64,000 bases of DNA from an uncultured Bacteriovoracaceae bacterium (GCA_964400685.1 CAYNVT010000001.1:41845-105844); one strand, 5' to 3'; shown: positions 3,384 to 46,837, counted from the first letter of the stretch. Numbers and translations are program-made. The notes: generated from the sequence alone by a model not told the origin.

Positions 3384-3818
3384 GATAAGCAGTCATTAAA
3401 TCTTTATTTCAAGTTCCTTCAGCCTTTTCGGTGCTTCAGTCCACATTTCAACTGCCCTCTCATTTTAGTGGTATCCGATGCCAGAGTCACTTGGGCATCC
3501 TGTCTAAAATCGGGCTTTTACCGGAATGTGCTAATGTTGTACAGACAACCTTTTTTATGTTGAAATATGCCATTTATAAGCAATCATTATGTCAGTTCTT
3601 AGAAATCAGCAAATATTACGAAAGATAAGTGAATTACAATAATGTTATCCAACCCGGTTTGTTTTTATGTAAAAGTATTGCTTTTTGATATGCTGCAATT
3701 ATTATTAAATATAAAGTTGAATTATAATAAAATATATATTATAGATATTTAAATTATTTATTAACATATTGGATATTATAAGTTAAACTATCATTTAATA
3801 GCTGGAGGCTTTAATTTA

Positions 3819-3923
3819 ATGTTTATTGTTTATTGGGATGTGAATGTAATATTGAGGCAGGGCGGTTGTTTGTCCAGAATTAATCCAAAGTACAAATCTA
3901 AAAAAATTATTAATAATTTATAG
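3819..3923 (+). CDS. 34-codon upstream small ORF (MFIVYWDVNVILRQGGCLSRINPKYKSKKIINNL); candidate leader peptide
   Basis: GGAGG at 3804-3808 lies 10 nt upstream of the ATG. Its TAG stop (3921-3923) overlaps the GGAGG Shine-Dalgarno of the downstream 629-aa gene. It lies in a very AT-rich tract and is not in the ORF track because it is under 60 aa. Confidence 0.3.
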   Translation: MFIVYWDVNVILRQGGCLSRINPKYKSKKIINNL

Positions 3924-3932
3924 GAGGTAATA

Positions 3933-10698: not shown

Positions 10699-10858
10699 AA
10701 TATCCTTATCGGTTTATAAGCCGATTTATTCAATATTTATGTTGAGTTTATGGGATTAGAGAAATCCGGCAACATAAATTCTTTACAGTTTCATGACTGG
10801 GCTGTAATCTTGATCAACAGATTAATTCAGCTCATTCAAACCAGAAGACGGAGAAGAC

Positions 10859-13210
10859 ATGGCTCAACTCACTTTAAGGGAATGGATTGCAAGGGTCGAG
10901 AACGACAGGCGGTTCATGGAAAATGTCACCGCCTTCAAGAAGATCGATGCTTCATCGGGAGGTTTTTCTCCTTATCCTGAGTGGGTGGACAGAAGAATAA
11001 GAAAAGTGCTCGAAGCCCGGGGGATAAAAAAACTTTACAGCCATCAGTCGGATGCAGTCGAACTGGTGAGGAAAGGCCGAGATGTTGTCCTTGTAACACC
11101 TACGGCCAGCGGAAAGACTCTGTGCTACAATATCCCGGTACTTCAGGCTATCATTGAAAAGCCCGAGACCAGGGCCCTTTACATGTTCCCGACAAAGGCA
11201 CTCGCGCAGGACCAGATGCAGGAGGTCCACAGCCTGATAACCGAGCTCGATATGAATATCAAAACCTTCACCTATGACGGCGACACGCCCGATGATGCCC
11301 GGCAGGCTATCCGCAGGCAGGGCCATATCGTTATTACAAACCCTGACATGCTGCATACCGGCATTCTGCCGCACCATACGAAGTGGCAGAAACTCTTCGC
11401 CAACCTTAAATATATAGTGGTCGACGAGCTTCATATCTACCGCGGGATATTCGGCAGCCACCTTGCAAATGTCTTCAGAAGGCTAAGGCGCATATGCAAT
11501 TTTTACGGGAGCAACCCGGTGTTCATCTGTTGTTCGGCAACCGTTGCCAACCCCAGGGAGCATTCCGAAGCCGTGCTCGGGCGCGAGGCCGAGCTTATTG
11601 ACAAGAGCGGTGCGCCGCGAGGGGAAAGGACGGTTATCCTTTATAATCCGCCTGTGGTGAACCGCGAACTCGGCATCAGACAAAGCGCCATGGTTCCTGC
11701 GCGCGAAATCGCAAAAAGCCTTGTTGATAACGGTATCCAGACAATAATCTTTGCGACCTCAAGGCTAAATGTCGAGGTCCTGACGAAATATCTGAAGGAC
11801 GCGTTTGCTCAGGGCAAGCTTCCCGATGACAGCCGTTTCATTTCAGGCTACAGGGGCGGCTATCTGCCTGAGACAAGGCGCGAGATCGAAAAGGGCCTCA
11901 GGGATAAAGAGGTGATGGGTGTTGTCAGCACGAATGCGCTTGAGCTTGGCATAGACATCGGGAATCTGGAAGCGTGTATAATGACGGGGTATCCAGGTTC
12001 GATTGCAAGCCTCTGGCAGCAGGCGGGCCGGGCGGGCCGCAAGAAGGATGCGAGCCTTGCCGTACTTGTGGGCAAGAGCATGCCGGTCGATCAGTTCATG
12101 ATGGAAAACCCGGATTTTCTTTTCGGCAGTCCGCCCGAGCACTGCCGGATAAACCCTGATAATCTCCTGATATTGCTTCATCACATTAAGTGCGCTGCGT
12201 TCGAGTTGCCGTTTACTGAAGGAGAAAACTTCGGGAACGAAAATATAAAGGAGATACTCGACTATCTTGCCGAAAAAGGTGTTCTCCACAAGGCGGGCGA
12301 ACAATGGCATTTTTCCGCCGACAGCTATCCCGCTGATGATGTGAGCCTGCGTACGGTCAATCCGGACAATGTCGTGGTGGTTGATGAAACAGTTACCGGC
12401 TCAAGCAGGATAATTGCCGAAGTGGACTTCGACAGCGCGTTCACTACGGTTCATGAGGGTGCTATCTACATGCTGGAATCAAGGCAATACCATGTGGACC
12501 ACTTCGATGTCGAGAGGCGCAAAGCCTATGTCCATCAGGTGGACTCCGACTATTATACAGATGCCATGACCTGGACGAATGTCAGTGTGCTGGACGAATT
12601 TTCGAACAAAAAAAGCGGAGTAATAACAGTGGGCCACGGCGAGGTCGAGGTCGTGAGGAAGGTGGCCGGTTTCAAAAAGATAAAATTCTATACCGGCGAA
12701 AATGTAGGGTTCGGCGATGTAAACCTGCCGCAGAACGACATGCATACTACCAGCTATTGGTTCACCATCCCCTGGAATATGCTCGATACCCTTGAAATCA
12801 CGCGTGGACAGATACTGGACGGCCTGATGGGGCTGAGCTATTGTCTGCATCAGCTTGCGGCCATCTGGCTCATGTCTGATGTGCGTGATATAGACCGCGC
12901 TATCGGAGACAAGACCGGCCAGTGGTACATTAAAGGCGGCAGGGACAGGCTGGCTACAACTCAGAGCGCGGAAACGCCGGTTGGCCTTTTCGACCCCACG
13001 ATATTCATTTTTGACGCATACCCCGGCGGCATCGGCTTTTCAGAACTTTTATATGAGATGCACGAAGACATACTTGTTCATGCCAGAACGCTTATTAATG
13101 TCTGCCCCTGTGAAAACGGCTGCCCCTCGTGCGTGGGCCCGCGCCTTGAAGTGGGTCCCGATGCAAAGTATGCCGCCCTTGAGATACTGCAATTGATTCT
13201 GGGAAAATAA
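10859..13210 (+). CDS. mrfA: MrfA (YprA)-like DExH-box helicase with C-terminal DUF1998 four-cysteine zinc domain
   Basis: 783 aa. Walker A TPTASGKT, a DELH box, the QQAGRAGR motif and a C-terminal CPCENGCPSCVGP. These align closely with my recollection of B. subtilis YprA. Confidence 0.85.
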   Translation: MAQLTLREWIARVENDRRFMENVTAFKKIDASSGGFSPYPEWVDRRIRKVLEARGIKKLYSHQSDAVELVRKGRDVVLVTPTASGKTLCYNIPVLQAIIEKPETRALYMFPTKALAQDQMQEVHSLITELDMNIKTFTYDGDTPDDARQAIRRQGHIVITNPDMLHTGILPHHTKWQKLFANLKYIVVDELHIYRGIFGSHLANVFRRLRRICNFYGSNPVFICCSATVANPREHSEAVLGREAELIDKSGAPRGERTVILYNPPVVNRELGIRQSAMVPAREIAKSLVDNGIQTIIFATSRLNVEVLTKYLKDAFAQGKLPDDSRFISGYRGGYLPETRREIEKGLRDKEVMGVVSTNALELGIDIGNLEACIMTGYPGSIASLWQQAGRAGRKKDASLAVLVGKSMPVDQFMMENPDFLFGSPPEHCRINPDNLLILLHHIKCAAFELPFTEGENFGNENIKEILDYLAEKGVLHKAGEQWHFSADSYPADDVSLRTVNPDNVVVVDETVTGSSRIIAEVDFDSAFTTVHEGAIYMLESRQYHVDHFDVERRKAYVHQVDSDYYTDAMTWTNVSVLDEFSNKKSGVITVGHGEVEVVRKVAGFKKIKFYTGENVGFGDVNLPQNDMHTTSYWFTIPWNMLDTLEITRGQILDGLMGLSYCLHQLAAIWLMSDVRDIDRAIGDKTGQWYIKGGRDRLATTQSAETPVGLFDPTIFIFDAYPGGIGFSELLYEMHEDILVHARTLINVCPCENGCPSCVGPRLEVGPDAKYAALEILQLILGK

Positions 13211-13244: not shown

Positions 13245-14585
13245 TTAATTATCGATTAGCAGAATCCTGACATCCATTACATTTGTTCGCGTAGGACCTG
13301 TCACGAGCAGATCGCCTGTCTCTTTCAGGAAATTATATGAATCATTGTCTTGAAGGTATGTATCGATATCGAGCCCCTTTGCTTTTCCTCGCGCAGCTGT
13401 TCTGGTATCGACAATTCCTCCGGCCGCATCTGTCGGGCCGTCCGAGCCGTCTGTTCCTCCGCTGAGAACAATGATGTTTTTATCCATGCCGGCGATTTCT
13501 TTTGCGGAAACGAGGGCGAATTCCTGGTTGCGCCCTCCCTTGCCGCTTCCTTTTATCTTCACCGTGGTTTCGCCTCCGCTGATTATGCAGGCGGGAAGAC
13601 TGGCGGAATTGCCTGAAAGGATTATCTGCCGGGCGATCGTGATATGCGCAAGAGCTACTTCTGTCGTATCGCCTTCAATGGCCGAAGAAAGGAGTATTGT
13701 GTGGTAGCTTGTCGATTCTGCCTCTTTCTTTGCTGCAGTGCAGGCCATAAGATTACTGCCGATAATTATGTTCGTTATCTTCTCGAAGATGGGATCTCCT
13801 GCCTTTGGCGTTTCCGGAATACAGCCTTCAGAACCTGCCTTGAGTCTTTCAATTACACTTGCAGGGAGCCTGTCTATGAGATCATATTTATTGATAATTC
13901 CCATTGCGTTATCGAACGAAGACCTGTCAGGTACAAATGGGCCCGAGGCGATTACATCCATGTCATCTCCAATGACATCTGAGAGCATAAGATTAATAAC
14001 CGTTGCAGGATATGCTATTCTGGCAAGCCCGCCACCTTTTGAAGATGAAAGGTGCTTTCTTACTGTATTTATTTCATGAATATCCGCCCCGCATTTGAGC
14101 ATCTCATCAGTTACTTTTCTTTTCTCGGCTAGTGATATTCCCTGAGCCGGCATCGGCAGAAGAGCTGAGCCTCCGCCTGATATGAGAGAGATAACGAGGT
14201 CGTTTTCCGTGCATGCATCAAGGAGATCGGAAATCTTCTGAGTCCCGGCCAAACCGTTCTCATCCGGTACCGGGTGACCTGCCTCGATAAGTTCGATTTT
14301 ATCAAGCTGTATGCCATAGCCGTACTTGATAACAACTGTCCCTTTGTTTATCCTGTCTCCCAGGATGGATTCAACAGCCTTCGCCATGGGTGCCGATGCC
14401 TTGCCTGCACCGACAACGACAACCCTGTGGTATTCATTCAGGTTGTATTTTTTATCGCCTGCGCTCAGCGTGTGATTGGTTAATGTCAGGAAAGATCTTA
14501 CCGCATTTTCAGGATCGACCGCAGCAACAGCGGCCTTGAATATTTTTATTGCATCATCTCTCATACTCGATGTCTTATCCGGCAT
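13245..14585 (-). CDS. glycerate 2-kinase, MOFRL family
   Basis: VVGAGKASAPMA and a MOFRL C-terminus. I prefer the ATG at 14585, preceded by GGAGG, over the ORF-track start at 14642. Confidence 0.8.
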   Translation of the reverse strand: MPDKTSSMRDDAIKIFKAAVAAVDPENAVRSFLTLTNHTLSAGDKKYNLNEYHRVVVVGAGKASAPMAKAVESILGDRINKGTVVIKYGYGIQLDKIELIEAGHPVPDENGLAGTQKISDLLDACTENDLVISLISGGGSALLPMPAQGISLAEKRKVTDEMLKCGADIHEINTVRKHLSSSKGGGLARIAYPATVINLMLSDVIGDDMDVIASGPFVPDRSSFDNAMGIINKYDLIDRLPASVIERLKAGSEGCIPETPKAGDPIFEKITNIIIGSNLMACTAAKKEAESTSYHTILLSSAIEGDTTEVALAHITIARQIILSGNSASLPACIISGGETTVKIKGSGKGGRNQEFALVSAKEIAGMDKNIIVLSGGTDGSDGPTDAAGGIVDTRTAARGKAKGLDIDTYLQDNDSYNFLKETGDLLVTGPTRTNVMDVRILLIDN

Positions 14586-14699
14586 TGAGCCACCTCCGTC
14601 GATCTGACTGACAATAAATGTTATCATGAGAAAAATGTTCATACCATAAATATATCAGGCTCGTTGACATGGGATTGTTATTTCCTTAAGGTACCAGAC

Positions 14700-30529: not shown

Positions 30530-33500
30530 CTATTTCACTTTCTCAATGTTTACCAGGAATGCCTTGTATTCCGGTATCATCGTGTTAGCGTCACCAATAA
30601 ACGGGGTCAGGTCATTCATATTGCCGCCTGTCACCACTCCCTTATATCCGAAATGCCAGGTTGTGCCGACCATGTGATGAATCTGGCCGTCAATGGTAAA
30701 TGGCTTCAAACGCTTTGTAACCATTGCTACAGCTTCAACGCCTTCAACATTTCTGATAGAAACCAGCTTGACTTTGTCGCCATTTTTAATGCCCCGTTCC
30801 TTTGCCAGCTCTTCGCTTAATTCAACAAACTGATTTGGAATCATCTCGCAGAGCCATGGCAACCACCTTGTCATCTGTCCGGTCTGCCAGTGTTCTACGA
30901 CACGGTAGGTAGAACAGATAAGCGGGAAGTTTTTGGAATCAGGATTATTTATTGTTGCCGCTATACAGCCTTCGACGATGAAAGGATCGCACTGTTCCTT
31001 TAAAACTTCTTCGTCGAAGCGTTTTATTACCGGGTTCCATTGATATTTTGACATCATGTTTTTAACCGGTGACTCAAGCGGTTCATAATGTTCAGGGAAC
31101 GGGCCGTCCTTCATTCCGGCTGCGAACAGCATGCCATGTCCATGTGAATTCATGATGAACGGATATTTCTCGCCAGGTTTGCTGGCACCGTCTGAAATAT
31201 CTCCAGCCCATGCCCCTTTGAGAGCGTTCCACCATATGACCGGCTTGTCTTTCGCCCATGGCTTGCCTTCAAGGTTGACGCTGGCAAGATTGTAAACAAT
31301 CCTTCTGTTGACCGGCCATGCCCATGACCAGTTGTGGAACATGCCAAGCCCTGTCGGGTCAGCCGGATCGCGCCTCATCATCAGGTTGTCCTTGTCATTA
31401 ACAGAATTGCAGTATACCCAGCAGCCGCTGCATGTCGAACCGTCATCCTGAAGTAGCGCAAAGGATGGAACCATGTCTCCAGCCTTGAATTTCTTTATTT
31501 CTTTTGTCTTGGCGTCTTCGATTTCCTTGTCAGTCACGAAATAGCCATTGATCTCTTTAGCAACTTCTCTCGGGGACGGTTTTTCGGCAAGCGCGCCATA
31601 CTTCCATGTGAGGTTCAGTATCGGGTCGGGGAATGCCCCGCCTTCTTCCTTGTAAAGCTTTTTGAGCCTTAAAACGAGCTGGTTGATTATCCACAGGTCG
31701 TCTTCGGAATGTCCGATCGGGTCAATGGCCTTATATCGCCACTGCGCCCAGCGGCCCGAATTGGATACAGAACCCTCTTTTTCAACAGAAGAGCATGCGG
31801 GAAGCAGGAAGACTTCGGTCTTTATTTCTGCAGGATCAACACCTGCCTCTTTCTGCCAGAATGCTGAGGTTTCGGTTTCCCAGAGGTCAACCGCGACAAA
31901 CCAGTCAAGCTTGGAAAGCGCCCTGCGAACCATTTTTGAGCTTGGAGCGCCAACAGCGGGATTCATTCCCCAAGCCATAAGACCTTTAATTTTTCCCCTG
32001 GCCATTGTATTGAACATGGGGAGATATGAATAATTCTTTCCGTCGTCGATCTTTGGAAGATATCCATAGGCTGTTTCAAGGTCTGCATCCCGCCACCATG
32101 CCTTCATGAGGCTTGCCAGGTATTTGGGACGGTTGCCCCACCAGTTTATGCTCTTCGGATCTGAATTCTTGGGTGTATTTTTTTCATTGTATGCTGCAAT
32201 TGTATTCAGGCTTGCAGTGGGATATGGCAGATATCCGGGAAGTATGTGGAACAATGCGCCATGGTCGGTCGAGCCCTGAACATTGCTTTCTCCGCGCAGC
32301 GCATTTATGCCGCCCCCAGCTACACCGATATTTCCCAACAGCAACTGCAGGACAGCAAATATCCTTACATTCTGCGAGCCGTATGTATGCTGTGTTGTTC
32401 CCATTGCATACATTATTGTACCGGATTTTTCAGGTTTGAACGTAGAAGTGTATGCATCACAGACAGCTTCATACTGTTTAGGGTCGGTTCCGGTAATAGA
32501 ACAGACTTTTTCCGGTGTGTAGCGGGCATAATGCTTCTTGAGCTGCTGGAATACGCACATGGGGTCCTGCATTGTAAGGTCCTGTTTTGGTATGCCGTTT
32601 TCATCGACCTGATATTTCCATGTGTCAGTATTGTATTTGGAGCCTTCCAGCCCTGAAAATGCACCATCGAGATCGGTAGCGCCTTTGAAGTCAGGGTTAA
32701 CAAGGAATGTCGCATCAGTATAGTTCTTTACATACTCTTCCTGAACTCTGTTCTTTGAAAGTGCGTAGTTTATCATACCGCCAAGGAATGCTATGTCGGT
32801 TCCCGGCCTTAATCGTGCATAGATATCTGCAGTTGCAGACGTTCTGGTAAATCTGGGATCAACGCTTATTAATTTGGCGCCACGTTTGGCCCTGGCTTCA
32901 TTTACCCATTTAAATGAAATCGGATGGTTTTCTGCTGCATTTGAACCCATTATAAGGATTGCATCTGAATGCTGCAGGTCTATCCAGTGGTTTGTCATTA
33001 CACCGCGTCCGAATGATGCCGCCAGACCGGCGACGGTGGCGCTGTGTCAGATACGGGCCTGGTGTTCAACATATACCAGGCCTAAAGAACGGTTGAATTT
33101 TGTAAGACTGTAAACTTCTTCATTGTCGAGGGCTGCGCCGCCGATTGCTGCCATGGCATCGGTCCTGTTTACCACTTCACCCTTGTCGTTCTGAAGTGTG
33201 AATGTTTCATCACGAAGCTTTTTGATTTTCCTTGCTATATTGTCCAATGCCCAGTCCCATTCAACTTCCTGCCACTTGTCAGCGCCGGGAGCCCTGTACT
33301 GAACCTTTGACAATCGTTTGTCATTGTTTGCAATCTGGTAAAGTGCCGCACCTTTTGCGCAGAGCGAGCCTTTGTTTATAGGGTGATCAGGATCACCTTC
33401 AGTACCGATAACCTTGCCGTTGCTGACCTGTGCAATAATTCCGCATCCGACGCCGCAATAAGGGCAGATGGTAGTTACTTCCTTTGCATAGCGGATTTTT

Positions 33501-33604
33501 TTCGGCTGGGCCAGAACAGGCTGTACGCCTATGCTGACGCCGATTCCCGCTGCTGCAAGGCTACCGCCGGAAAGTTTAAGGAAACCCCTTCTGGTAAGTT
33601 CCAT
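30530..33604 (-). CDS. fdnG: formate dehydrogenase alpha subunit, selenocysteine-containing, Tat-exported (in-frame UGA at 33047-33049)
   Basis: ORF-track entries 33047..33604 and 30530..32998 are in the same frame, separated only by TGA. The sequence reads ...VEHQARI-U-HSATVAGLAASFGRG..., matching the FdnG selenocysteine (Sec) context. The N-terminus has a Tat signal, RRGFLK. Confidence 0.9.
33000..33046 (-). other. putative bacterial SECIS stem-loop immediately 3' of the fdnG UGA
   Basis: The mRNA reads UGA CAC AGC GCC ACC GUC GCC GGU CUG GCG GCA UC.... A UCGCC/GGCGG stem with a GGUC(U) apical loop lies ~20 nt after the UGA, resembling the E. coli fdhF SECIS geometry. Confidence 0.4.
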
Positions 33605-36541: not shown

Positions 36542-37810
36542 ATGAGCTACGAAGCTGATTATGCAAAGGCCCTTCAGATAGGCAGACCACCCAATGTCAG
36601 GAAGCTTTTTCCGAATTCGAAGGCGCTTATTGTCAGCGGCAAGGTGATCGACCGAGCAATGAGGGCGAAAGGGCATGCAATGACTATTGCAGCCAACGGC
36701 AGGAGCACAACAGTTATCCGAGGAACACTCAAGGCTGCCCAGAAAGCCAATGCAGCCGTTATAATCGAGATAGCAAAATCAGAGAGCAATTACTGCCATG
36801 TCGGGTTGTGGAACATTGCAAGATATGTGGACTCTTTCTGCAACGAACTTGGGATAACGGTGCCTGTCGCAGTTCATGCTGACCACTTCGGTATCACGAA
36901 TGCCGCCGAACTAGAGAAGGCGAAGACCGATATACCGTCCATCTTCGATGAGGGCATTACATCGATTGCAATCGACGCTTCGCACATGCCTGAAGATGAA
37001 AACCTGCTCGCAAACATCGAAATCAGCAAATATATCCCGTCATGGGCCGGATATGAAACAGAGGTCGGCGAAATCAAAGGGGTGGCCGGACTCTCGACAC
37101 CTGAAGAGGCCCTGTTCCTGATTCAGGGTTTGAATGCACATAAGATTTTTCCTGACTGGATAGCGCTTAATAACGGCACGACCCATGGCATCGAGGAAAG
37201 CGACGCAGGCATTCAGGTAGAACTGACCGCCGAGATTCACAAGGCCATTGAAAAATACGGATTATCCGGGGCGCAGCACGGCACGTCAGGAAACAGCAAT
37301 GTGAGGCTCAAAAAAATAGCTGCCGAGACTCATACCACAAAGGCGAATGTGGCGACAGCCCTGCAAATGCTTTCCTGGGGAGTCAAGGTGAATGAATTCG
37401 GCAATGCTATACTGGATGCCGATAAGAACCTTCTCAAGCTGGAATGCACAGGCATGGACGATAAGCTGTGGTCTGAAATGGTTTCATATGCAAAGGACAA
37501 AGGTCTGAAGGCTGGTGATTTTAAAAAGCTCAATCTTCCTTTCGAAAACAAGATACTTGCTCAAACCCCTGAAGTCAGAGAGCGCATGGAAAAGGCAGTG
37601 GAAGATTTTGTTTATGACCTGCTGGTAAACGTCTTTAATGCAAAAGACACGGCGCCTCTTGCAGTTGAGGCAATACTCAAGGCCGGTTCCTATGACCTTG
37701 GCCCAAAAGGGACGCCGATCGACAATGTCTCCGACTGGACGGTTGAAAAGATAAAATCTAAAGGCAAGGAGAAAACCGACGACAGCCCTGCAGGGAAATA
37801 CGACGACTGA
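36542..37810 (+). CDS. class II fructose-bisphosphate aldolase family protein (long form)
   Basis: 422 aa with the HADH metal site and a class-II aldolase TIM barrel. Confidence 0.7.
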   Translation: MSYEADYAKALQIGRPPNVRKLFPNSKALIVSGKVIDRAMRAKGHAMTIAANGRSTTVIRGTLKAAQKANAAVIIEIAKSESNYCHVGLWNIARYVDSFCNELGITVPVAVHADHFGITNAAELEKAKTDIPSIFDEGITSIAIDASHMPEDENLLANIEISKYIPSWAGYETEVGEIKGVAGLSTPEEALFLIQGLNAHKIFPDWIALNNGTTHGIEESDAGIQVELTAEIHKAIEKYGLSGAQHGTSGNSNVRLKKIAAETHTTKANVATALQMLSWGVKVNEFGNAILDADKNLLKLECTGMDDKLWSEMVSYAKDKGLKAGDFKKLNLPFENKILAQTPEVRERMEKAVEDFVYDLLVNVFNAKDTAPLAVEAILKAGSYDLGPKGTPIDNVSDWTVEKIKSKGKEKTDDSPAGKYDD

Positions 37811-37910
37811 TGTCTGTTTTAAGCAAATAGAGCTTATCAACGAAAGGCCATGAAACAATCATGGCCTTTCGTTATATAATTGCTCCACTATAAGTTTTTT
37901 GAAGTTTCCT

Positions 37911-39029
37911 CTACTTGAGAATATCCGTTAAAGCACTGGTTAATCGCTCAATGTTTACTTTTCGGGCTGCGTGCCCCATAACACCTATTCTCCATATTTT
38001 TCCGGCCAGCGGCCCTAATCCGGCGCCGATCTCGATCTTGTAATCCTGAAGAAGCTTTTTCCTTACCATCGCCTCCTCCACACCATCAGGAACCGTGACG
38101 GCATTCAACATCGGCAGTCGATATTCATTTTCAACAAGCATTGTCAGTCCAAGCTGCTCAAGTGACCGGACCAGAGCAAGGTGATTATCCATGTGTCTTG
38201 CATAAACATTATCCAGCCCCTCATCCAGGATGTTTGCCAGGCACTGGTAAAGTCCATAGAGCATGTTAACCGGAGCAGTATGGTGATAGACTCTTGAACT
38301 GCCCTCCCAGTAATTAATGATCATTGTAAGGTCAAGATACCAGTTGGGGACCTTCTTTTTACGGTTTTTCAGTTTCTCCACCGCTCTTTCTGAAAATGTG
38401 ATGGGAGAAAGTCCGGGAGGACAAGAAAGACATTTCTGTGTTCCGCTGTACATGGCGTCCACGTGCCAGGAATCAGCTTCAACTGCTATTCCGCCAAGAC
38501 TTGTAACAGTATCCACAAGGTAAAGGGCATCCTTGCCTTTGAGTAGTCCTGAAATTTCAGCTACGGGATTATTTACGCCAGTGGATGTTTCAGCATGGAC
38601 GATTCCCACAAGAGAGTAATCCTTTTTATCGAGCTGTTCCTTCACCTTCGCCGGTTCAACAGGTGTTCCCCATTCAAACTCAACAACATCGACACATGCC
38701 CCGAGGCGGCAAGCTACATCCGCCATCCTCATCCCAAAGACACCATTTATTAAAATCAGTACATCATCACCAGGCTCAACAAGATTGACGAAACAAGTCT
38801 CCATACCGGCAGATCCCGTTCCAGAAACAGGGATTGTCAGTCTATTCTTTGTATTCATGACGTTTTGAAGCATTTCCTTGATCTCGTTCATAATGCTGAT
38901 GAATTTAGGGTCGAGATGCCCGATAGTCGGCTTCGAAAGTGCCAGATATACCTCCGGATATACACAAGAGGGACCCGGTCCCATCAATAATACTTCTTCT
39001 ATTGTATCGAGTTGATTTTTCATATTCAC
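37911..39029 (-). CDS. class V aminotransferase (serine-pyruvate / alanine-glyoxylate aminotransferase family)
   Basis: 372 aa; LLMGPGPS N-terminus and a PLP fold. Confidence 0.8.
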   Translation of the reverse strand: MNMKNQLDTIEEVLLMGPGPSCVYPEVYLALSKPTIGHLDPKFISIMNEIKEMLQNVMNTKNRLTIPVSGTGSAGMETCFVNLVEPGDDVLILINGVFGMRMADVACRLGACVDVVEFEWGTPVEPAKVKEQLDKKDYSLVGIVHAETSTGVNNPVAEISGLLKGKDALYLVDTVTSLGGIAVEADSWHVDAMYSGTQKCLSCPPGLSPITFSERAVEKLKNRKKKVPNWYLDLTMIINYWEGSSRVYHHTAPVNMLYGLYQCLANILDEGLDNVYARHMDNHLALVRSLEQLGLTMLVENEYRLPMLNAVTVPDGVEEAMVRKKLLQDYKIEIGAGLGPLAGKIWRIGVMGHAARKVNIERLTSALTDILK

Positions 39030-39040
39030 ACCTCTCAGGA

Positions 39041-40447
39041 CTATAAAATATTCTTAATTGATTCTTCGTCGTACTCTTTTCCTTCGTTCTTCAATCTGAT
39101 TGCCTGTTTCAGTAATTCATGACGCTTTCGGGTCATGGGAAGGAGATAAGCCCCCAGAACACTGAGGAATAAGAAAAAGGCAACACCTGCGGCATAAAGA
39201 AGCCTGATACCGAAGAGGGCATGTTCTGTTTGCACCTGATCGGGAACATATCCTACCAGGGAGAGTATTATACCGATAAACCATAGAAAAAGGGCCACCG
39301 TGGACTTTCTTGTAAAAGAAATCACACCGAAAAAAAGTCCTTCCCTTCTCTGTCCGAATTTGAATTCATCAACCTCAACTGCGTCGGGAATCATTGACCA
39401 GATGGTCATGGAGATCGACATTACCCCGCCTGAAGCAAGGACCATCATTATATAAAAGGTGATGATCATTGAGGGTTTAACCAGCATTCCGCCAACTGCC
39501 TGTACAATAGCCCAGATCCCTATAAAGATCATATAGGATTCCCGCTTGCCATATCTTGAAGACAGCCAGTTGATAACCGGAATCCATAATATCGTGCAAG
39601 CAAATAGAAAAAGGAAAGCCAGGGATTGCTGCGTATCGTTAAATTTCATGTAATACTTCATAAAGTAGACCATGACAGCAGCAGCCGAACTTAATCCAAC
39701 GCTTCCGGCTGCATAAAGTCCCATAGTATATAAAAAGGTTCGATTTCTTAATGGGCCGGTGAAAACATCCTTTAGTTTAACAGAAACATTTTCAGGGAAA
39801 AGCTCCCTTCCTCTTGTGGCTCGCCATGTAATAAGTATAGGAAAAACAGAGAAAATTCCGAACATCGCGGCCATGAGAGACCATCCACCCCTGTTGCTTC
39901 CCATAATATCCTTACAAAATGTAACCAGTGTCCAGGGTAAGGCTGCAGCCAGAATTGCCGCAATTTGACTGAATGCAGCCCTGAATCCGTTTAAGTTGGT
40001 TCTTTCGTCGTAATCCTGAGTCATCTCCGCCCCAAGTGATGTGTAAGGAATATCAAGGAGGGTGGCGGCAGTATAATACATCATAATGGCAAGGCAGAAA
40101 TAAATTTTCGTGCTGAACTCTCCTAATCCGAAATCAGTAAATAAAAGCCATGTGATCAAACCGAAGGGAACAGCAACGCCCAGCAGAAAGGGACGCCTTC
40201 TTCCCCATTTTGACTTTACGCGGTCTGATAATATGCCTACCATGGGATCGGTCACAGCATCCCAGAGGGTTCCAAGCATCAGTATAAAACCGGCAAAAGC
40301 AGGTGTGATACCAACCACATCAGTAAGATAGAAAAGAAAAATGACGGAAACCATTGTCCAGGTCAAAGTGCTTGAAAGTTCAGCTGAACCATAGCCCAGT
40401 TTAACGTAAAATGGGAGTTTTACGGTATTATCCAAGGCTTTATCCAT
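39041..40447 (-). CDS. glycoside-pentoside-hexuronide (GPH):cation symporter (MelB-like MFS)
   Basis: 468 aa, 12 TM; GPH signature DAVTDPMVGILSDRVKSKWGRRRPF. Confidence 0.8.
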   Translation of the reverse strand: MDKALDNTVKLPFYVKLGYGSAELSSTLTWTMVSVIFLFYLTDVVGITPAFAGFILMLGTLWDAVTDPMVGILSDRVKSKWGRRRPFLLGVAVPFGLITWLLFTDFGLGEFSTKIYFCLAIMMYYTAATLLDIPYTSLGAEMTQDYDERTNLNGFRAAFSQIAAILAAALPWTLVTFCKDIMGSNRGGWSLMAAMFGIFSVFPILITWRATRGRELFPENVSVKLKDVFTGPLRNRTFLYTMGLYAAGSVGLSSAAAVMVYFMKYYMKFNDTQQSLAFLFLFACTILWIPVINWLSSRYGKRESYMIFIGIWAIVQAVGGMLVKPSMIITFYIMMVLASGGVMSISMTIWSMIPDAVEVDEFKFGQRREGLFFGVISFTRKSTVALFLWFIGIILSLVGYVPDQVQTEHALFGIRLLYAAGVAFFLFLSVLGAYLLPMTRKRHELLKQAIRLKNEGKEYDEESIKNIL

Positions 40448-40486
40448 TTTGACAACTCCTTTAATAAAACTGTTATAAGGCTCTAT

Positions 40487-41830
40487 TTAATCGATTCTGA
40501 CTCCCTGTCTTTTAAGGGCCTTTTGCACTTTTTTTATATCAACCTCTCTGCAAGTAACACCGTCCTTAAGGGATTGTGCCGCAGCAATTCCAGCACCCTG
40601 TCCTGTTACTGTGCAGCACATCATCTGTCTTGTAGCTGCATGGGACAGTTTATCACCGGCGACACAACGGCCAGCTACTAGGAGGTTTTCAACCTTCAGA
40701 GGAAGAATTATACCATAGGGAACATGAAAGTAACGGCCAGTACTTGGCATTATGGCGGTTTTATTGCCGTCAAGAAATTCAGGGAATATTCCAATGGAGT
40801 CATCAAAATGCGCCTGGTTTAACATCTCTTCACCGGTGATATTATATTCACCAATGATTTTTCTCGATTCCCTTGTACCAAGGGAAGCGCCCATTGTTCT
40901 GAGTCTGGATTTTTCAAAACCGGGAGTAAATTTCTTCAAGGCCTCAACCGCCCACATGACATGCTGCCTTCCCTCGATTTCAGCCTTTGTAAGATCCCAG
41001 ACATCTGTACAGTCATAATTCGGCATATGAACTGCGTTGAGTGTCCTGATCTCTCCCGCATCGGTAAAGTCGTTCCAGTAGCTTTCCAGATGGGCATATT
41101 CCGGTATATCGCCGTTTTTCTTTGCCTTTTCAAAAGGCTCAACAAGGTAGGTGCTGAACTCGCCTCCTTCTTTATCACCGGAGTTCTGGCCCCAGTCCGC
41201 AATCGTCGTTCCCCTGTTTAATATATAATCAAGAAATACCTGGACATCTACGCCACTGCATCCGAAATTCACAGATACAGGCTCCAATATCTCTTTCGGG
41301 TCGAGACGGTATGGAGCACCGGCATGAAAGGCAACATCCGCATCACCCGAGGCATCGATAACTCTCTTGGCAAGAATCGCCTGTCTTCCTGACTTGCTCT
41401 CTGTAACAACACCAGCAATGGTATTTCCCTCCATGATCACATTTACTGTTGTGCAATGAAGAAGGGGAATTATCCCCGCTTCCTTGACCATTGTATCAGC
41501 GATATACTTGAAGACTTCAGTATCAAGAATTTCATAAAAGAATATGCTGAGGCTTGCCCCCATCTCTTTTGCACGTTTCTCGAATTCAACACCTATTCCA
41601 CCGGCATCCACAACCTTCTCATTGGACCTGTACCAGGCAATAGTCCCAACAATTGATTGTGTTATGTTGCCTCCAAAGCATCCGTAACGTTCAACGAGCA
41701 TCGTATCAACACCTTCTCTTGCGGATGCCAGGGCTGCAGAGAGACCGCCTGGTCCGCCGCCGATTACAAGAACATCAGTTTCAGCAATTACTGGAATCTT
41801 TCTTATTCTTTCTTCAATGTATTTAATCAA
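40487..41830 (-). CDS. FAD-dependent oxidoreductase (PF12831-like)
   Basis: N-terminal DVLVIGGGPGGLSAALASAREG dinucleotide-binding motif. Confidence 0.7.
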   Translation of the reverse strand: MIKYIEERIRKIPVIAETDVLVIGGGPGGLSAALASAREGVDTMLVERYGCFGGNITQSIVGTIAWYRSNEKVVDAGGIGVEFEKRAKEMGASLSIFFYEILDTEVFKYIADTMVKEAGIIPLLHCTTVNVIMEGNTIAGVVTESKSGRQAILAKRVIDASGDADVAFHAGAPYRLDPKEILEPVSVNFGCSGVDVQVFLDYILNRGTTIADWGQNSGDKEGGEFSTYLVEPFEKAKKNGDIPEYAHLESYWNDFTDAGEIRTLNAVHMPNYDCTDVWDLTKAEIEGRQHVMWAVEALKKFTPGFEKSRLRTMGASLGTRESRKIIGEYNITGEEMLNQAHFDDSIGIFPEFLDGNKTAIMPSTGRYFHVPYGIILPLKVENLLVAGRCVAGDKLSHAATRQMMCCTVTGQGAGIAAAQSLKDGVTCREVDIKKVQKALKRQGVRID

Positions 41831-42540
41831 ATGCTACCTCCAGCAATATCCTTTTTCGATATAAATGATGCGCATATTGTTGCATGTTCCCGGGCAAGTT
41901 TTCTTGCCAGCTCCACATCCTTATCTATGATAGCCTCCAATATGGGCCTGTGCCTTTCAAGGGCTTCCACCCTATCTTCAATGCTTCGGGCATACCTGAT
42001 CAGGAATGCCTGGATATGGCGGAAGAGAGCCTGATACATGGCAATAAAAAACTGGTTGCCTGACATTTCAACAAGAGCGAAGTGGAAGTCATAGTCCCGT
42101 CTGGCAAATAGTTCAGGGTCATCTAATACATTTTCATCATATTTAAGCAGACCTTCAAGGAAGGTGATCTGATCGGCTGTGCGAGTTTTTGAAACTTTAG
42201 CAGCAACTTCAGATTCAATCAGGTTCCTGGCTTCAACAAGATCATTCATCCGATTGAAATCATGGTTTGGAAATAGAGGAATGAGAACATTATCCAGGGC
42301 GGAAACGCTGATGGATTTTGTGACATATGCGCCCTTGCCATGTCGCACATGAATAATTCCGAGTGCTGCCAGTCTTGCAAGGGCTTCTCGCAGGGTAAGA
42401 CGGCTCACAGAGTATTCCTGCAGCATTACCTGTTCACTTGGCAACTGATCTCCAGGCCCGAATTCACCGTTCCTGATGCGTTCTTTTAAACTTTCGACAA
42501 TGGCTTTCGTGGCTGTAACCCGAAGAAGGGGAATAGACAT
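41827..42540 (-). CDS. GntR-family transcriptional regulator (FadR subfamily: wHTH + FCD)
   Basis: An EQVMLQEYSVSRLTLREAL helix-turn-helix (HTH) and a C-terminal helical FadR C-terminal domain (FCD). Its start overlaps the FAD-oxidoreductase stop. Confidence 0.85.
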   Translation of the reverse strand: MSIPLLRVTATKAIVESLKERIRNGEFGPGDQLPSEQVMLQEYSVSRLTLREALARLAALGIIHVRHGKGAYVTKSISVSALDNVLIPLFPNHDFNRMNDLVEARNLIESEVAAKVSKTRTADQITFLEGLLKYDENVLDDPELFARRDYDFHFALVEMSGNQFFIAMYQALFRHIQAFLIRYARSIEDRVEALERHRPILEAIIDKDVELARKLAREHATICASFISKKDIAGGSI

Positions 42541-42581
42541 AAATCCTCCTGAAGAAACGTATATCTTATATAACCATGTTA

Positions 42582-42610
42582 CTTATATTACTCATCTGAT
42601 GAGTTGTCAA
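42582..42610 (-). promoter_or_regulatory. sigma70 promoter of the GntR operon with an embedded operator
   Basis: On the minus strand: TTGACA (from 42605-42610), a 17-nt spacer, then TATAAG (from 42582-42587). The 15-bp palindrome ACTCATCtGATGAGT at 42590-42604 sits inside the spacer. A GGAGG RBS follows before the ATG at 42540. Confidence 0.6.
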
Positions 42611-42821
42611 TATAGAATTCTTTTGCCAATCACTTAAGGTTCTTGCAAGAGTCCATTTTGAGTCAAATCAGATACTTTCGAGAACCGTCATGTTGAGAAA
42701 GTCATTAATAAAACCTTTTAAAGTGATACAACTAAACATTTTTGATTTTGCGTGTGTTTTGGTGATTTAAATTTGAGAAAATTTAGTCTGTTTTGATATT
42801 TACATAGTCCTCCCGGAATAT

Positions 42822-45131
42822 TCAAACTGACGGGCCACTCTTTATCATAGCTGTTAATGAAGTATTTATGGAAGCCTTTATTGTCAGGACACCTGAAGCG
42901 TTATCATATAAGTCTTTATCTATAGTACATCTATTTGCCTCGATCCTGTATGAGACAAAGTTCCTGCCGTGCAAGATGAAAGAAACATCTCTTTTTCGAG
43001 GCTGGCCGGAAAAGGCCCCAGTGGCAGGATCAACTGTTATTTCAATACCGGAATCCGGGTAATTACTGAAAGTGAATTTCTGTGTGGATGATTCGCCCTG
43101 CTGATAGGAAAGAGTGGAGAAGTCGTCTTCATATAATACGGCAGCACCGTCAAACGGAGGGAAGATGTGGACTTCGATTTCATCGAACCTGTGGCTATCA
43201 GGAATGAATTGAAGGATTTTACCCAGGATTACTGGTTTGCCGCCCCTTATAAAAAGCGGCAGGTGTCCGTCATCCACAGGCACATCGAACCATCCCGGCC
43301 CTTCGAACCTTTTCTCATTCCACCATGAGTACCAGGGTCCTTTCGGGAAATAGACCTTGATTGATTTTACCCCGGGTTCAAGCACGGGGGCCAACATCAG
43401 CGCATCGCCGATCATCGGTTGTTGCCAGACGGGTCTTGAGTGAGGGTCATCGGGGAACTCCAGATAAAGAGGCCTGATAATAGGAATGCCCGTGTCAAAG
43501 GCTTCGCGTGCAAGACGGTAATAATACGGCAGCAGCCTCATTTTCAGATTGATATGCCGCCTGAAGTTTTCCTCGCATTCCTTATCAATCCCCCAGGGAT
43601 TCCTGTTAGGATCATGGGGCGAGGAAAAATATCTCGACAAGGGGCTGAAAATTGACCACTGGGAATAGCGGCGGTGAAGTTCGGCTGACGGAGATTTGTA
43701 GAGCGAAAGCACATCTGCACCCCAATACGCATAGCCCAGCAGGCTCATGTTGAGTCCGCATCTCATGGTTGCAGCGATATGTTTGAATTCCGGTGTCTGG
43801 TCGCCCAAAAATATTCCGGGAAAGCGCTGGGTGCCTGCCCAGTTTGTCCTGGAAAAGACAAGGGCCCTTTTATCTCCATGGTATTCCTGGCATCTTTCGA
43901 AAAGCGCCTTCGTATAATAGAAACAGTAGATGTTATGATATTCCTCGTCATCAAGCCCGATTGATGATCTGGAGCCCTTCGGGAGATATTCCGCACCGTC
44001 GTTCTTGAAGAAATAAACGCCCTGATCGAGAAGCGGCTTCTGCTTGTCAAACCACCAGTCGCATGCTTTCTCATTTGTGAAGTCGACAGCGCCACCCCTG
44101 CCCAGCCACCATGTGACATTGTCGTGGGCGAAGTAGCCTTTTCTTATGCCCTCATTGAAATTGTCCATTGCATAGTCTTTTGACAGCAAAGGGACACCAT
44201 CCGGGGCGTTTTTGACATAAAGCCTTACAAGAAATTTATATAAAGGATACGTATCCCTGTTTATATATGGCGTATAGATAAGGCCTGTCTTTATCCCTGT
44301 TTCTTTCATCTGAGAGAGCATCTTTACCGGATCGGGGAAAATGGACCTGCGCCACTTGAAATCGGAAAAGGCCTGCTGCCAGTGATAATCAAAGATGACT
44401 GCATCCAGCGGGATCTGCTTTTCTCTGTGCTTTCGTATGCGGGTCAGGGTTTCATTCTGGTTTTCGACAGGGTAGGCGGTATTCCACAGGCCGAAGGCCC
44501 AGAGAGGCAAAAGGGGCGGCCTGCCTGTGAGAGTTGTATAATTTGTAATTATCTCCTTGAAGTCAGTCCCGGCTATTACGAAAAAATCAAGACTTCCGCC
44601 TGAAAACCTGACTGACAGCTTTCCCACGGGTTTGTTGATTTTAACTTTTGCCCTGTGTGCATTCAAGATGAATATCATATAGCCGCGGTCGCTCAAAAAG
44701 CATGGGAACGCCGAATATGTCTGCTTATGCTGCAGGAAGGCCGGTGATTCGAGGTTGTGAATGGTAAACACACCACTTTTTCTTCTGAATGCGTTAAACC
44801 ATTCACCGAAACCGTAAAAGCCTTCGTCTTCACAGGTGTCGATTTCAAACGAATGCCGGACAGGGTCGGCATGAATCTTAAGGGTTTTATCTCTAAAACT
44901 TATTATAACCTGTCCTTTGTTTCCATCATATGAGATTCCCGAAAAGCATGTCGAAGAAATGTTTTCGTGATATTCATGAGGGATAAGCACATCCCTGACG
45001 AATCGCGCTTCACTAGAATCGTCATCTGAAAGAGTTATCCTGACAATATTTTTTCCGGTAAAAAGAATCCTTGAATCAGAAGAAATATTTTTTCGGATAA
45101 TATTATTTAAAAAACCAAGTTGATTTTTCAT
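42822..45131 (-). CDS. glycoside hydrolase family 31 (alpha-glucosidase / alpha-xylosidase / sulfoquinovosidase-type)
   Basis: 769 aa. GH31 blocks: IPLDAVIFDYHWQ, a GGAVDFTNE catalytic region and GIFLGDQ. Confidence 0.85.
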   Translation of the reverse strand: MKNQLGFLNNIIRKNISSDSRILFTGKNIVRITLSDDDSSEARFVRDVLIPHEYHENISSTCFSGISYDGNKGQVIISFRDKTLKIHADPVRHSFEIDTCEDEGFYGFGEWFNAFRRKSGVFTIHNLESPAFLQHKQTYSAFPCFLSDRGYMIFILNAHRAKVKINKPVGKLSVRFSGGSLDFFVIAGTDFKEIITNYTTLTGRPPLLPLWAFGLWNTAYPVENQNETLTRIRKHREKQIPLDAVIFDYHWQQAFSDFKWRRSIFPDPVKMLSQMKETGIKTGLIYTPYINRDTYPLYKFLVRLYVKNAPDGVPLLSKDYAMDNFNEGIRKGYFAHDNVTWWLGRGGAVDFTNEKACDWWFDKQKPLLDQGVYFFKNDGAEYLPKGSRSSIGLDDEEYHNIYCFYYTKALFERCQEYHGDKRALVFSRTNWAGTQRFPGIFLGDQTPEFKHIAATMRCGLNMSLLGYAYWGADVLSLYKSPSAELHRRYSQWSIFSPLSRYFSSPHDPNRNPWGIDKECEENFRRHINLKMRLLPYYYRLAREAFDTGIPIIRPLYLEFPDDPHSRPVWQQPMIGDALMLAPVLEPGVKSIKVYFPKGPWYSWWNEKRFEGPGWFDVPVDDGHLPLFIRGGKPVILGKILQFIPDSHRFDEIEVHIFPPFDGAAVLYEDDFSTLSYQQGESSTQKFTFSNYPDSGIEITVDPATGAFSGQPRKRDVSFILHGRNFVSYRIEANRCTIDKDLYDNASGVLTIKASINTSLTAMIKSGPSV

Positions 45132-46837
45132 TCCAAGACAGCTCCCCTTGCCGCGGAACCAACCAGCTTTACATATCTCTGCATATAACCCTGCGGGATA
45201 TGTTTTGATAAGGGTTTAAAGCCTGCAAGCCTTGACTCAAGTTCCTTTTCCGTCAGATTAACGGTGAGTTTCCTGTTCGGAATGTCGATTGTTATTTCAT
45301 CTCCGTTATTTATTACGGCAATTGGACCGCCTGAAAAGGCCTCAGGTGATACATGACCTATGCATGGACCGGATGTCGCACCGGAAAACCGGCCATCTGT
45401 TATCAGTGCTACACGTTTGAACCCGGCCAGATCCAACCCCATTGTCATAGCAAGTGTCTCAGCCATTCCCGGTCCGCCTTTAGGTCCCTCGTACCTGATA
45501 ACGACAACTTCGCCCTCCGTGATATTCTTTTCTCGGATAGCCTTGAGTGCGTCGGCTTCTGAATCAAATATATGAGCGGGTCCGGTAAAAACCAGCATGT
45601 CATTTGCGACTGCAGACTGCTTGACTATAGCCCCGTCGGGTGCAAGATTTCCGAACAGTGCTACTGTTCCCCCTTCAGTAAGATATGGGGAGTCTTTGCT
45701 TCTTATTACTGATGAATCCTTAATAGCTGCAAAGGAGGTAATTTCTCCCATCGTGTATCCGGAAACCGTTATGCAGTCCAGGTGCAAATCATCGGCTAGC
45801 ACTTTCATTACACCCGGAATGCCTCCTGCGGTAAACAGGTCGATAATTCCATGCGGGCCGTTAGGTGAAATGCTCAATAAGGTAGGTATTTTCCTGTTGA
45901 AATCATTAAATTTTGAAATGGGAAATTCGACGCCCAGCTCATTTGCGATTGCCGGAAGGTGAAGGGCCGAATTGGTTGAGCCTCCTATTGCAAGGTCTAC
46001 TATCAGGGCGTTTTCAATGGACTTTTCCGTAAGTATTTTTCTTGCGGTCAGGCCCTCTTCAACCATCGCCACTATCCGCTTTCCTGAATTCCTTGCCGCA
46101 AGGAGCTTTCCTGAATGCCAGGCCGGAATGCTGGCCGTACCCGGCAGGGTAAGTCCAAAGGCCTCTGCAAGGGATTGCATCGTGTTTGCAGTTCCCATCA
46201 GTTCACAGGAGCCGCATGTCACTGCAGTTGCGCAGGAAAGTTTATCGAGAAGGTCATCATAAGTCTTGTGGTCTATGCTGCCCTCGTAGGTGTGCTTCAG
46301 CCTGATTTCCCAGGCATTCGGCCCTCCGGTTATAAAGATGGAAGGCAGGTCAAGCCTGGCTGCAGCCATTATCATTCCCGGGATTATCTTGTCGCAGCCT
46401 GCAATAAAGATTATCCCATCATACCGCATGCTTCTTACATGGGTTTCTATAATGTCTGCAATCAGGTCGCGCTGTGCCAGAACAAATCGCATGCCTTCAT
46501 GACCTTCGGTAATGCCGTCGCATGGCGCAGGGACATTGAACTCAAAAGGAACCCCGCCGGCTGCATGAACCCCTTCTTTGGCCCGCTGCGCGAGGAGCGA
46601 CAAATGCATATGTCCCGGATTAATATCGGTTGCAGAAGATGCTATTGCTATCAGGGGCTTTTCTTTAAGCTCCTCCATATCGCATCCAGTACCCTGAAAA
46701 ATGTGCTTACGGACCAGGCTTATAGGAAAATCAGCATCATCGAAAATAGGCATACTCTGTGGCTTTTTCATTAATTCCTCCAAACAGTGGATTAAGTACT
46801 TATTTTTAAGCAATATGTCAGATTTAAAAGTTGTCAA
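45128..46837 (-). CDS. IlvD/EDD-family dehydratase (dihydroxy-acid or sugar-acid dehydratase)
   Basis: Collinear with IlvD (IASSATDINPGHMHL, FEFN..CDGITEGHEGM, AGCDKIIPG). The start is uncertain. Its stop overlaps the GH31 start as ATGA. Confidence 0.8.
   Translation of the reverse strand: MTTFKSDILLKNKYLIHCLEELMKKPQSMPIFDDADFPISLVRKHIFQGTGCDMEELKEKPLIAIASSATDINPGHMHLSLLAQRAKEGVHAAGGVPFEFNVPAPCDGITEGHEGMRFVLAQRDLIADIIETHVRSMRYDGIIFIAGCDKIIPGMIMAAARLDLPSIFITGGPNAWEIRLKHTYEGSIDHKTYDDLLDKLSCATAVTCGSCELMGTANTMQSLAEAFGLTLPGTASIPAWHSGKLLAARNSGKRIVAMVEEGLTARKILTEKSIENALIVDLAIGGSTNSALHLPAIANELGVEFPISKFNDFNRKIPTLLSISPNGPHGIIDLFTAGGIPGVMKVLADDLHLDCITVSGYTMGEITSFAAIKDSSVIRSKDSPYLTEGGTVALFGNLAPDGAIVKQSAVANDMLVFTGPAHIFDSEADALKAIREKNITEGEVVVIRYEGPKGGPGMAETLAMTMGLDLAGFKRVALITDGRFSGATSGPCIGHVSPEAFSGGPIAVINNGDEITIDIPNRKLTVNLTEKELESRLAGFKPLSKHIPQGYMQRYVKLVGSAARGAVLE

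Follow-up and report, generated by a model that had tools for sequence, protein, structure and literature searches.

In pathways that are engineered or run cell-free, dehydratases of the IlvD/EDD superfamily act as bottleneck enzymes. Described members include the dihydroxy-acid dehydratases (DHADs) that serve branched-chain amino-acid (BCAA) synthesis, such as the [4Fe-4S] enzyme of E. coli and the [2Fe-2S] enzymes of Mycobacterium tuberculosis (Mtb) and Synechocystis, and the sugar-acid dehydratases (RlArDHT, CcXyDHT, PuDHT, E. coli YagF/YjhG and Edd). The [2Fe-2S] enzymes have Cys where the [4Fe-4S] enzymes carry Gly (the position of AtDHAD Cys66; PMC9543379). Sugar-acid dehydratases have a conserved C-terminal His that enters the neighbouring active site, and a conserved Met of the BCAA enzymes (Met100 of Mtb DHAD) occupies the same spatial position (PMC11316719). 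The E. coli cluster yagE-yagF-yagG-yagH-xynR (also yjhGHI) groups genes for an aldolase, an IlvD/EDD xylonate dehydratase, a transporter of the GPH family, a glycosidase and a regulator. We analysed a locus of similar appearance in a stretch of 64,000 nucleotides (64 kb; hereafter the window) from a genome deposited as an uncultured Bacteriovoracaceae bacterium (GCA_964400685.1 CAYNVT010000001.1:41845-105844). Six open reading frames (ORFs) on its minus strand, from 46771 to 37911, encode an IlvD/EDD dehydratase, a GH31 glycosidase, a GntR regulator, an FAD-dependent oxidoreductase, a GPH symporter and a class V aminotransferase.

A sequence-only reading of the window had joined these genes into a single glycoside catabolic locus in which the dehydratase acts on the product of the glycosidase. 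Pfam and NCBIfam profile searches agreed with all six family assignments. The locus is probably a mosaic of three units, namely the dehydratase, the GH31 glycosidase and a cassette of the remaining four genes, which recently became neighbours in one Desulfomonilia lineage, and not a new sugar pathway. The genes are new members of known families and their arrangement is incidental. The stop/start overlap and the plausible mix of families had suggested a new oxidative sugar pathway; comparative genomics led to three recently met units, which is a reason for caution in reading such loci. The mosaic would occupy a site on the minus strand between rpoZ-dnaJ and a convergent fba-like/fbp pair. The features are as follows.

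45128-46771, minus strand: IlvD/EDD dehydratase, 547 amino acids (aa), with ILVD_EDD_N and ILV_EDD_C domains, a ribosome-binding site and an ATG start; 547-aa orthologues are 58-96% identical.
45128-45131, minus strand: ATGA stop/start overlap of the dehydratase and GH31 genes, read directly from the sequence; also in locus L001.
42822-45131, minus strand: GH31 alpha-glycosidase, predicted cytoplasmic, 769 aa, with four GH31 Pfam domains, of a YicI-related clade.
42582-42610, minus strand: cassette promoter with presumed GntR operator, from sequence; the same architecture in L001, L012 and L013.
41827-42540, minus strand: GntR regulator with FCD domain (FadR subfamily), from Pfam; homologues of 69% identity head the module in L012 and L013.
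40487-41830, minus strand: FAD-dependent oxidoreductase (PF12831, 314 bits), 447 aa.
39041-40447, minus strand: GPH (MFS_2) cation symporter, 264.6 bits to TIGR00792 (cut-off 231.35).
37911-39029 (likely start ATG 39023), minus strand: AGXT-type class V aminotransferase, 367 bits to PDB entry 1vjo.
37839-37873, no strand assigned: bidirectional terminator hairpin with perfect 15-nt arms, between the aminotransferase gene and the convergent aldolase gene.

The GntR-FAD-GPH-aminotransferase cassette is independent of the dehydratase and GH31 genes. The window and L001/L061 hold all six genes. In L018, which is the same as L008 (dehydratase 88%, GH31 80% identical), the order at the same site is rpoZ, dehydratase-GH31, fba-fbp, without the GntR, FAD, GPH and aminotransferase genes. 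A homologous hairpin (AAGGCCATGA...TCATGGCCTT) is found directly 3' of the GH31 stop codon in L018 and 3' of the aminotransferase stop codon in the window, so the cassette is placed after the GH31 stop codon and before the old terminator. Neither direct repeats nor mobility genes were found at its boundaries, and there was no GC anomaly; insertion here and loss in L018 are therefore indistinguishable. Partial modules occur in unrelated genomes without GH31 or dehydratase, as GntR-aminotransferase-FAD in L012 and L013 (69-78% identity) and as an FAD-aminotransferase pair in L110-L112.

The gap between the GH31 and GntR genes is 281 nt. In it, TTGACA (42610-42605) is followed by a 17-nt spacer with the palindrome ACTCATCAGATGAGT (42604-42590) and by TATAAG (42587-42582). 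In the window, L012 and L013 alike, the GntR gene is preceded by a TTGAC(A/T)-CTCATCNGATGAG core with an A/T-rich -10-like hexamer; the L001 palindrome has one mismatch. The only exact match to the operator in the window is at the cassette promoter, with none upstream of the dehydratase gene. We presume the palindrome to be the GntR operator. With its own putative promoter and operator, its absence from L018 and its partial modules in unrelated genomes, the cassette is probably a self-contained, autoregulated unit, and the idea that all six genes form one locus and one pathway fails here. In the scheme that we propose, this portable cassette would be transcribed from its own promoter, and GntR would repress it through the palindrome in the -35/-10 spacer as long as no carboxylate effector is bound. 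The symporter would import the substrate, which would be converted by the flavoenzyme and the aminotransferase via a 2-oxo-acid or glyoxylate-type intermediate.

The FAD oxidoreductase of the cassette has ~7,900 relatives at E <= 1e-20, of which the best 120 are 73-81% identical and one is 100% identical, and a PDB sequence search found no solved homologue beyond the FAD-binding motif. Its predicted structure was poor (pLDDT 57), and Foldseek with this model against the PDB gave generic FAD-binding domain matches only (Thi4, fumarate reductase and similar); a literature search on PF12831 gave nothing informative. Elsewhere the flavoenzyme is also accompanied by a second flavoenzyme paralogue, by OATP-like MFS transporters or by a glycyl-radical enzyme. 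In a contig of JGI 3300072015, a close homologue adjoins a glycyl-radical enzyme with its activase and an OATP-like MFS transporter, and in L014-L016 homologues lie near a PFL-like fragment. These contexts hint that the flavoenzyme is linked to the degradation, under anaerobic conditions, of a small organic anion or amine. The symporter is 24-26% identical to E. coli YihO, YihP, YagG and YicJ. The aminotransferase resembles the AGXT family (Nostoc alr1004, PucG, human AGT), with 367 bits to Nostoc alanine-glyoxylate aminotransferase (1vjo) and 292 bits to PucG. It shares with this family the motifs SGTQK (Lys197) and RIGVMG (Arg345), which we take to bind pyridoxal phosphate and the substrate carboxylate, respectively, as in AGXT. 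It differs in lying inside a GntR-FAD oxidoreductase cassette and in scoring below all NCBIfam equivalog cut-offs.

For the other two units, the TGA of the dehydratase gene and the ATG of the GH31 gene share four nucleotides. Here the earlier reading held at the sequence level, as the overlap indicates that the two genes are co-transcribed and translationally coupled in this genome. The window has four other same-strand 4-nt overlaps (five with the GntR/FAD junction of the cassette), and some of them join functionally unrelated genes (DNA polymerase III alpha fragment/accA, accA/prepilin peptidase, and glycerol kinase/MlaE). Because such overlaps are routine in the window, also between unrelated genes, the ATGA overlap says little about function. 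The two genes are spaced differently within the lineage: they overlap (-4 nt) in the window and L001, are ~40 nt apart in L008/L018, and in L097 are separated by 217 nt with a terminator-like hairpin (15-bp stem) in between.

The GH31 gene was absent from all 40 other loci with a dehydratase orthologue (58-76% identity), and the dehydratase adjoined none of the ~7 other contexts of GH31 homologues (44-67% identity). Elsewhere GH31 is a stand-alone gene, and its annotated contexts (L009-L011, L099 and L100) have unrelated neighbours, such as genes for a molybdopterin oxidoreductase, a Na/H exchanger, a diacylglycerol-kinase-like protein, EF-G and sensor kinases. The dehydratase-GH31 adjacency is confined to this Desulfomonilia lineage. 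Flanking housekeeping genes are also syntenic at these short evolutionary distances, so the conserved adjacency carries no functional weight. The claimed functional link between dehydratase and GH31 was not borne out by this distribution or by the hairpin between the genes in L097. We suggest that the two units first came to lie side by side in this lineage, and that compaction to the ATGA overlap followed.

The second unit would be a cytoplasmic, retaining GH31 alpha-glycosidase. The protein matched PF01055 with 242 bits, in addition to N- and C-terminal GH31 domains, and no signal peptide was found in it. Its nucleophile D378 and acid/base D444, equivalent to D405 and D472 of YihQ, are invariant. 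The best PDB match was E. coli YicI (254-268 bits, 30% identity), which is also its best characterised relative and shares the catalytic Asp pair. In contrast to YicI, which is paired with the YicJ symporter, GH31s of the window type have no adjacent transporter in other lineages. They also differ in the pocket: YicI C307, F308, W345 and H540 correspond to Y249, H250, I285 and F502, so that the His common to YicI (H540) and YihQ (H537) is replaced by Phe. These replacements are conserved across the aligned members of the clade. His250 was dropped as a diagnostic residue, as CjAgd31B has Tyr there and the position varies among characterised bacterial GH31s.

Two identities had been considered for the enzyme from the sequence alone. 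It is not a sulfoquinovosidase, because the positions of the YihQ sulfonate pocket (R301, W304 and Y508) fall in deletions, as they do in all five aligned relatives. A YicI-type alpha-xylosidase is not supported, in view of the replaced C307, F308 and W345 and of the score to PRK10658 (373.3 bits against a cut-off of 606). The literature on GH31 subfamily schemes offered no way to place the protein. Its residues suggest a retaining alpha-glycosidase with an atypical -1 subsite, in an uncharacterised clade related to YicI.

The dehydratase has the residues of the superfamily: the Fe-S cysteines, the Mg ligands (Asp, the Asp-Lys of CDK, and Glu) and the catalytic Ser are present in C(DG), GCDK, GSC, YEGP and GRFSG. 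It thus shares with the BCAA DHADs the two Pfam domains, CDK with the second cluster cysteine, the Mg ligands and the Ser. With the E. coli-type [4Fe-4S] DHADs it also shares the Gly marker ('NPGH'), and Gly at the position of AtDHAD Cys66 predicts an oxygen-labile [4Fe-4S]-type enzyme. Two other signatures set it apart. Glu occupies the Met100 position ('PCDGITEGHEGM'), which is Met in the Mtb, Synechocystis and E. coli DHADs (GITEGH against GIAMGH or GISMGH), and the C-terminus (...GAVLE) lacks the His of sugar-acid dehydratases. The Gly, the Glu and the His-free C-terminus are common to 46 of 46 clade members. A further difference from the DHADs is VLAQRD in place of SLPSRE or SLVSRE.

With the sugar-acid dehydratases, the protein shares the superfamily, a polar pocket residue (Gln in Edd and YjhG, Glu here) and a Cys before the Mg-binding Asp, which Met-type relatives also have. 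It differs from them in lacking the C-terminal His, the [2Fe-2S] Cys and any adjacent aldolase, lactonase or sugar dehydrogenase. By these residues it fits neither the BCAA nor the sugar-acid marker. Edd and YjhG also have the CDG motif, but it was dropped as a sugar-acid marker, as 21 relatives with CDG carry the BCAA-type Met. The Met-type relatives (CDGIAMGH) are 44-50% identical to the dehydratase.

Family models gave a similar picture. The dehydratase scored 616.4 bits against TIGR00110, the ilvD equivalog (cut-off 618.15), and 620.5 against PRK00911 (cut-off 644); its orthologue in L066 scored 599.9 against TIGR00110. Models of sugar-acid dehydratases were far from their cut-offs, with 410.3 bits for L-arabinonate dehydratase (cut-off 882), 299.9 for YjhG/YagF (808) and 257.5 for the Edd model TIGR01196 (708.25). 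In direct comparison, the protein had 312 bits to L-arabinonate dehydratase and 36% identity to YagF. The proposed roles as a xylonate, arabinonate or Edd-type dehydratase are thus not supported, in view of these scores and of the missing His. L066, a Dehalococcoidia contig, carries a Glu-type member (2695-4281, minus strand) and, 6 kb apart, a second IlvD paralogue (10001-11644, plus strand). The second paralogue passed the ilvD cut-off with 657 bits, yet it has Gln at the pocket position and lies beside IolD-like and IolG-like genes. The NCBIfam ilvD model therefore over-calls and is an unreliable discriminator.

In neither the window nor the 40 orthologous loci did ilv or leu genes adjoin the dehydratase. 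The commonest neighbour was a D-2-hydroxyacid dehydrogenase resembling glyoxylate/hydroxypyruvate reductase and phosphoglycerate dehydrogenase. This gene was adjacent on the same strand in 11 loci of three subclades, with a gap of 10-59 nt in seven of the 11, and the dehydratase of the window nests within the clade that pairs with it. Other recurring neighbours were IclR, SDR, acyl-CoA ligase and dehydrogenase, MaoC and sigma-54 regulators, and the neighbour in Smithellaceae was bioB. This gene context agrees with a role outside BCAA synthesis. Since Glu replaces Met, the score is under the ilvD cut-off and ilv/leu neighbours are absent in the 40 loci, the dehydratase is probably not a standard branched-chain DHAD. 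On this point the sequence-only reading stood in part: a role away from BCAA synthesis is probable, while its derivation from a functional link with GH31 was lost. In the mosaic, the first unit would be an oxygen-sensitive [4Fe-4S]-type dehydratase that makes a 2-oxo acid from a 2,3-dihydroxy acid. The substrate may be polar and not branched-chain, as suggested by Glu in place of Met, the lack of the C-terminal His and the D-2-hydroxyacid dehydrogenase partner.

Two other groups of IlvD/EDD homologues were seen in the comparison. A separate clade with 42-54% identity and Asn at the pocket (L058, L062, L084, L085 and L093; also L067 and L070) is found in Asgard archaea and Bacillota, beside genes for RraA-type aldolase, LarA-like, GH38/57-like, GPH transporter, NAD-epimerase and aldehyde:ferredoxin oxidoreductase proteins. 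These loci look like an uncharacterised anaerobic non-phosphorylative route for glycosides or sugar acids. Homologues in L075, L076, L081, L082, L086, L090-L092 and L096 adjoin proline-racemase-like, DHDPS-like and AcnX genes, and in them the Mg-binding Asp is replaced by Gly and the CDK Lys by Ser or Asn. The context is of the hydroxyproline type, and the replacement of these two residues suggests altered chemistry.

Several observations weigh against the mosaic and the role that we assign to the dehydratase. The protein misses the ilvD model by just 2 bits, and its highest overall similarity is to true DHADs (417 bits to the Mtb enzyme, 383 bits to that of Synechocystis, and 39% identity to EcIlvD). 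Across the superfamily, the residue at the pocket position differs (Met in ~35 cluster representatives, Gln in ~22 and other residues in fewer), so the Glu is suggestive, not diagnostic. The dehydratase might be the cell's sole DHAD. Adjacency to GH31 is retained in at least three related genomes and has tightened to an overlap, and the GH31-cassette junction is free of a terminator, which fits selection for co-expression. GH31 was sampled in ~7 independent contexts, and peptide-pattern scanning biases the sample of related genomes.

Some of these observations are expected if the dehydratase is the housekeeping DHAD of BCAA synthesis, an anaerobe-type [4Fe-4S] IlvD that was packed into an operon with GH31 incidentally. 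Its closest matches by family and structure are true DHADs, no Fe-S, Mg or catalytic Ser residue is missing, the surroundings are of a housekeeping kind (rpoZ, dnaJ and dnaK here, bioB in Smithellaceae), and no second ilvD was seen in the 64 kb window. A search of the whole window with Rfam found no riboswitch or leader upstream of the gene. This explanation is unlikely in view of the Glu in place of the Met of the Mtb, Synechocystis and E. coli enzymes, with Met-type relatives just 44-50% identical, and of the neighbourhoods, which lack ilv/leu genes and repeatedly contain 2-hydroxyacid dehydrogenase, IclR, acyl-CoA enzymes and sigma-54 regulators. In addition, the clade has a patchy distribution over phyla (60-76% identity), with two members (L040/L049) or a further paralogue (L066) in some genomes.

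The dehydratase and GH31 might also form a true two-step pair. GH31 would free a 2,3-dihydroxy acid aglycone, for example from glucosyl-glycerate or another glycosyl-glycerate, and the dehydratase would turn it into a 2-oxo acid such as pyruvate. Because the dehydratase would convert the released acid directly, neither a sugar dehydrogenase nor an aldolase is needed. The apparent co-transcription and translational coupling of the genes would fit such a pair, as would the atypical -1 subsite of GH31. The usual partner elsewhere, the glyoxylate/hydroxypyruvate-reductase-like 2-hydroxyacid dehydrogenase, would also supply D-glycerate; the window also has genes for a glucosylglycerate-hydrolase-like (MGH1-like) enzyme and for a glycerate 2-kinase, and the AGXT-type aminotransferase could connect serine and hydroxypyruvate. 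We nevertheless regard the pair as rather improbable: it is found in one lineage with shared synteny, with the terminator-like hairpin between the genes in a close relative, GH31 homologues elsewhere are without neighbours for acid metabolism, and glycerate dehydration is known just as a weak side activity of DHADs.

A more speculative extension, to which we give little weight, is that the Glu-type 547-aa clade serves in nature to dehydrate a short polar 2,3-dihydroxy acid, such as D-glycerate. In most lineages it would be fed by the hydroxypyruvate-reductase-like dehydrogenase and, here, by the action of GH31 on a compound of the glycosyl-glycerate type. If this were true, anaerobes would have a kinase-free route to pyruvate, and the cassette could tie glycerate, hydroxypyruvate and serine together.

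The likeness to the E. coli yag cluster is superficial in gene content. That cluster includes a 2-keto-3-deoxy-acid aldolase and its glycosidase is GH43, whereas the glycosidase of the window is GH31, its transporter belongs to a separate cassette, and identities are 24-36%. The window locus is without the aldolase and the oxidising step that define yag-like routes, and family profile searches found no KDPG/KDSG-type aldolase within or beside the six genes. One non-canonical oxidative glycoside pathway (Weimberg/Dahms-like or sulfo-ED-like) comprising all six genes, with the FAD enzyme as sugar dehydrogenase and the class II aldolase for cleavage, is very improbable in spite of the yag likeness and of distant IlvD/EDD clades whose neighbours are glycosidase-like, GPH, RraA-type aldolase and aldehyde-oxidoreductase genes, given the separable cassette with its own putative promoter and presumed operator, a GH31 without the pocket residues of sulfoquinovosidase and YicI, a dehydratase without the sugar-acid His and far below the arabinonate, xylonate and Edd models, the lack of a lactonase and a KDPG-type aldolase at the locus, and an aldolase gene that is convergent, past the bidirectional terminator, and syntenic with fbp regardless of the cassette, also in the cassette-free relative.

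Under the mosaic, the value of the locus is in enzyme discovery. The Glu-type dehydratases are an uncharacterised, strongly conserved IlvD/EDD clade with a pocket signature of neither BCAA nor sugar-acid type and a conserved 2-hydroxyacid dehydrogenase partner. The GH31 clade offers an atypical -1 subsite, and the GntR-flavoenzyme-aminotransferase cassette is widespread, with a flavoenzyme that has no solved relative beyond its FAD-binding domain.

The source genome is a metagenome-assembled genome of Desulfomonilia (Desulfobacterota). L061 (GCA_964513375.1) has the same locus with 90-98% protein identity and is also labelled 'uncultured Bacteriovoracaceae', and the other close relatives are labelled Desulfomonilia; the label of L061 is probably wrong. 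Divergently oriented upstream of the dehydratase gene are rpoZ, dnaJ and genes for a lipid A acyltransferase and dnaK. Downstream of the six genes, in convergent orientation, are a divergent class II aldolase-like gene and then class 1 fbp. The aldolase-like protein (36542-37810, plus strand, 422 aa) matched fructose-bisphosphate aldolase weakly (74 bits against a cut-off of 343); its gene is kept beside class 1 fbp in relatives, and it may be an atypical fructose-bisphosphate aldolase.

The dehydratase starts at ATG 46771, with a GGAGG site upstream, which gives 547 aa, the length of nearly all orthologues listed. Position 46837 is merely the first TTG of the open frame, and it was rejected as the start in favour of this ATG. 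The aminotransferase most likely starts at ATG 39023 (370 aa), as annotated in L001. From this ATG, the aminotransferase and GH31 both begin with MKNQL, and their start regions (39011-39024 and 45119-45132; repeat family D2) match in 13 of 14 nt, probably by coincidence.

Two further genes of the window concern glycosyl-glycerates. An MGH1-like glycosidase (6770-8038, minus strand) scored 94 bits to glucosylglycerate hydrolase against a cut-off of 550, and a DUF4147/MOFRL glycerate 2-kinase-like gene is at 13245-14642 on the minus strand. Together they give a hint that the organism metabolises glycosyl-glycerate compounds. The glycerate kinase had been recruited into the proposed pathway, from which it is set apart by a distance of 23 kb. 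A molybdopterin oxidoreductase gene (30530-33604, minus strand) is split by an in-frame TGA in EHQARI*HSATV. It looks like a selenocysteine-containing formate dehydrogenase, and the two ORFs are probably one gene.

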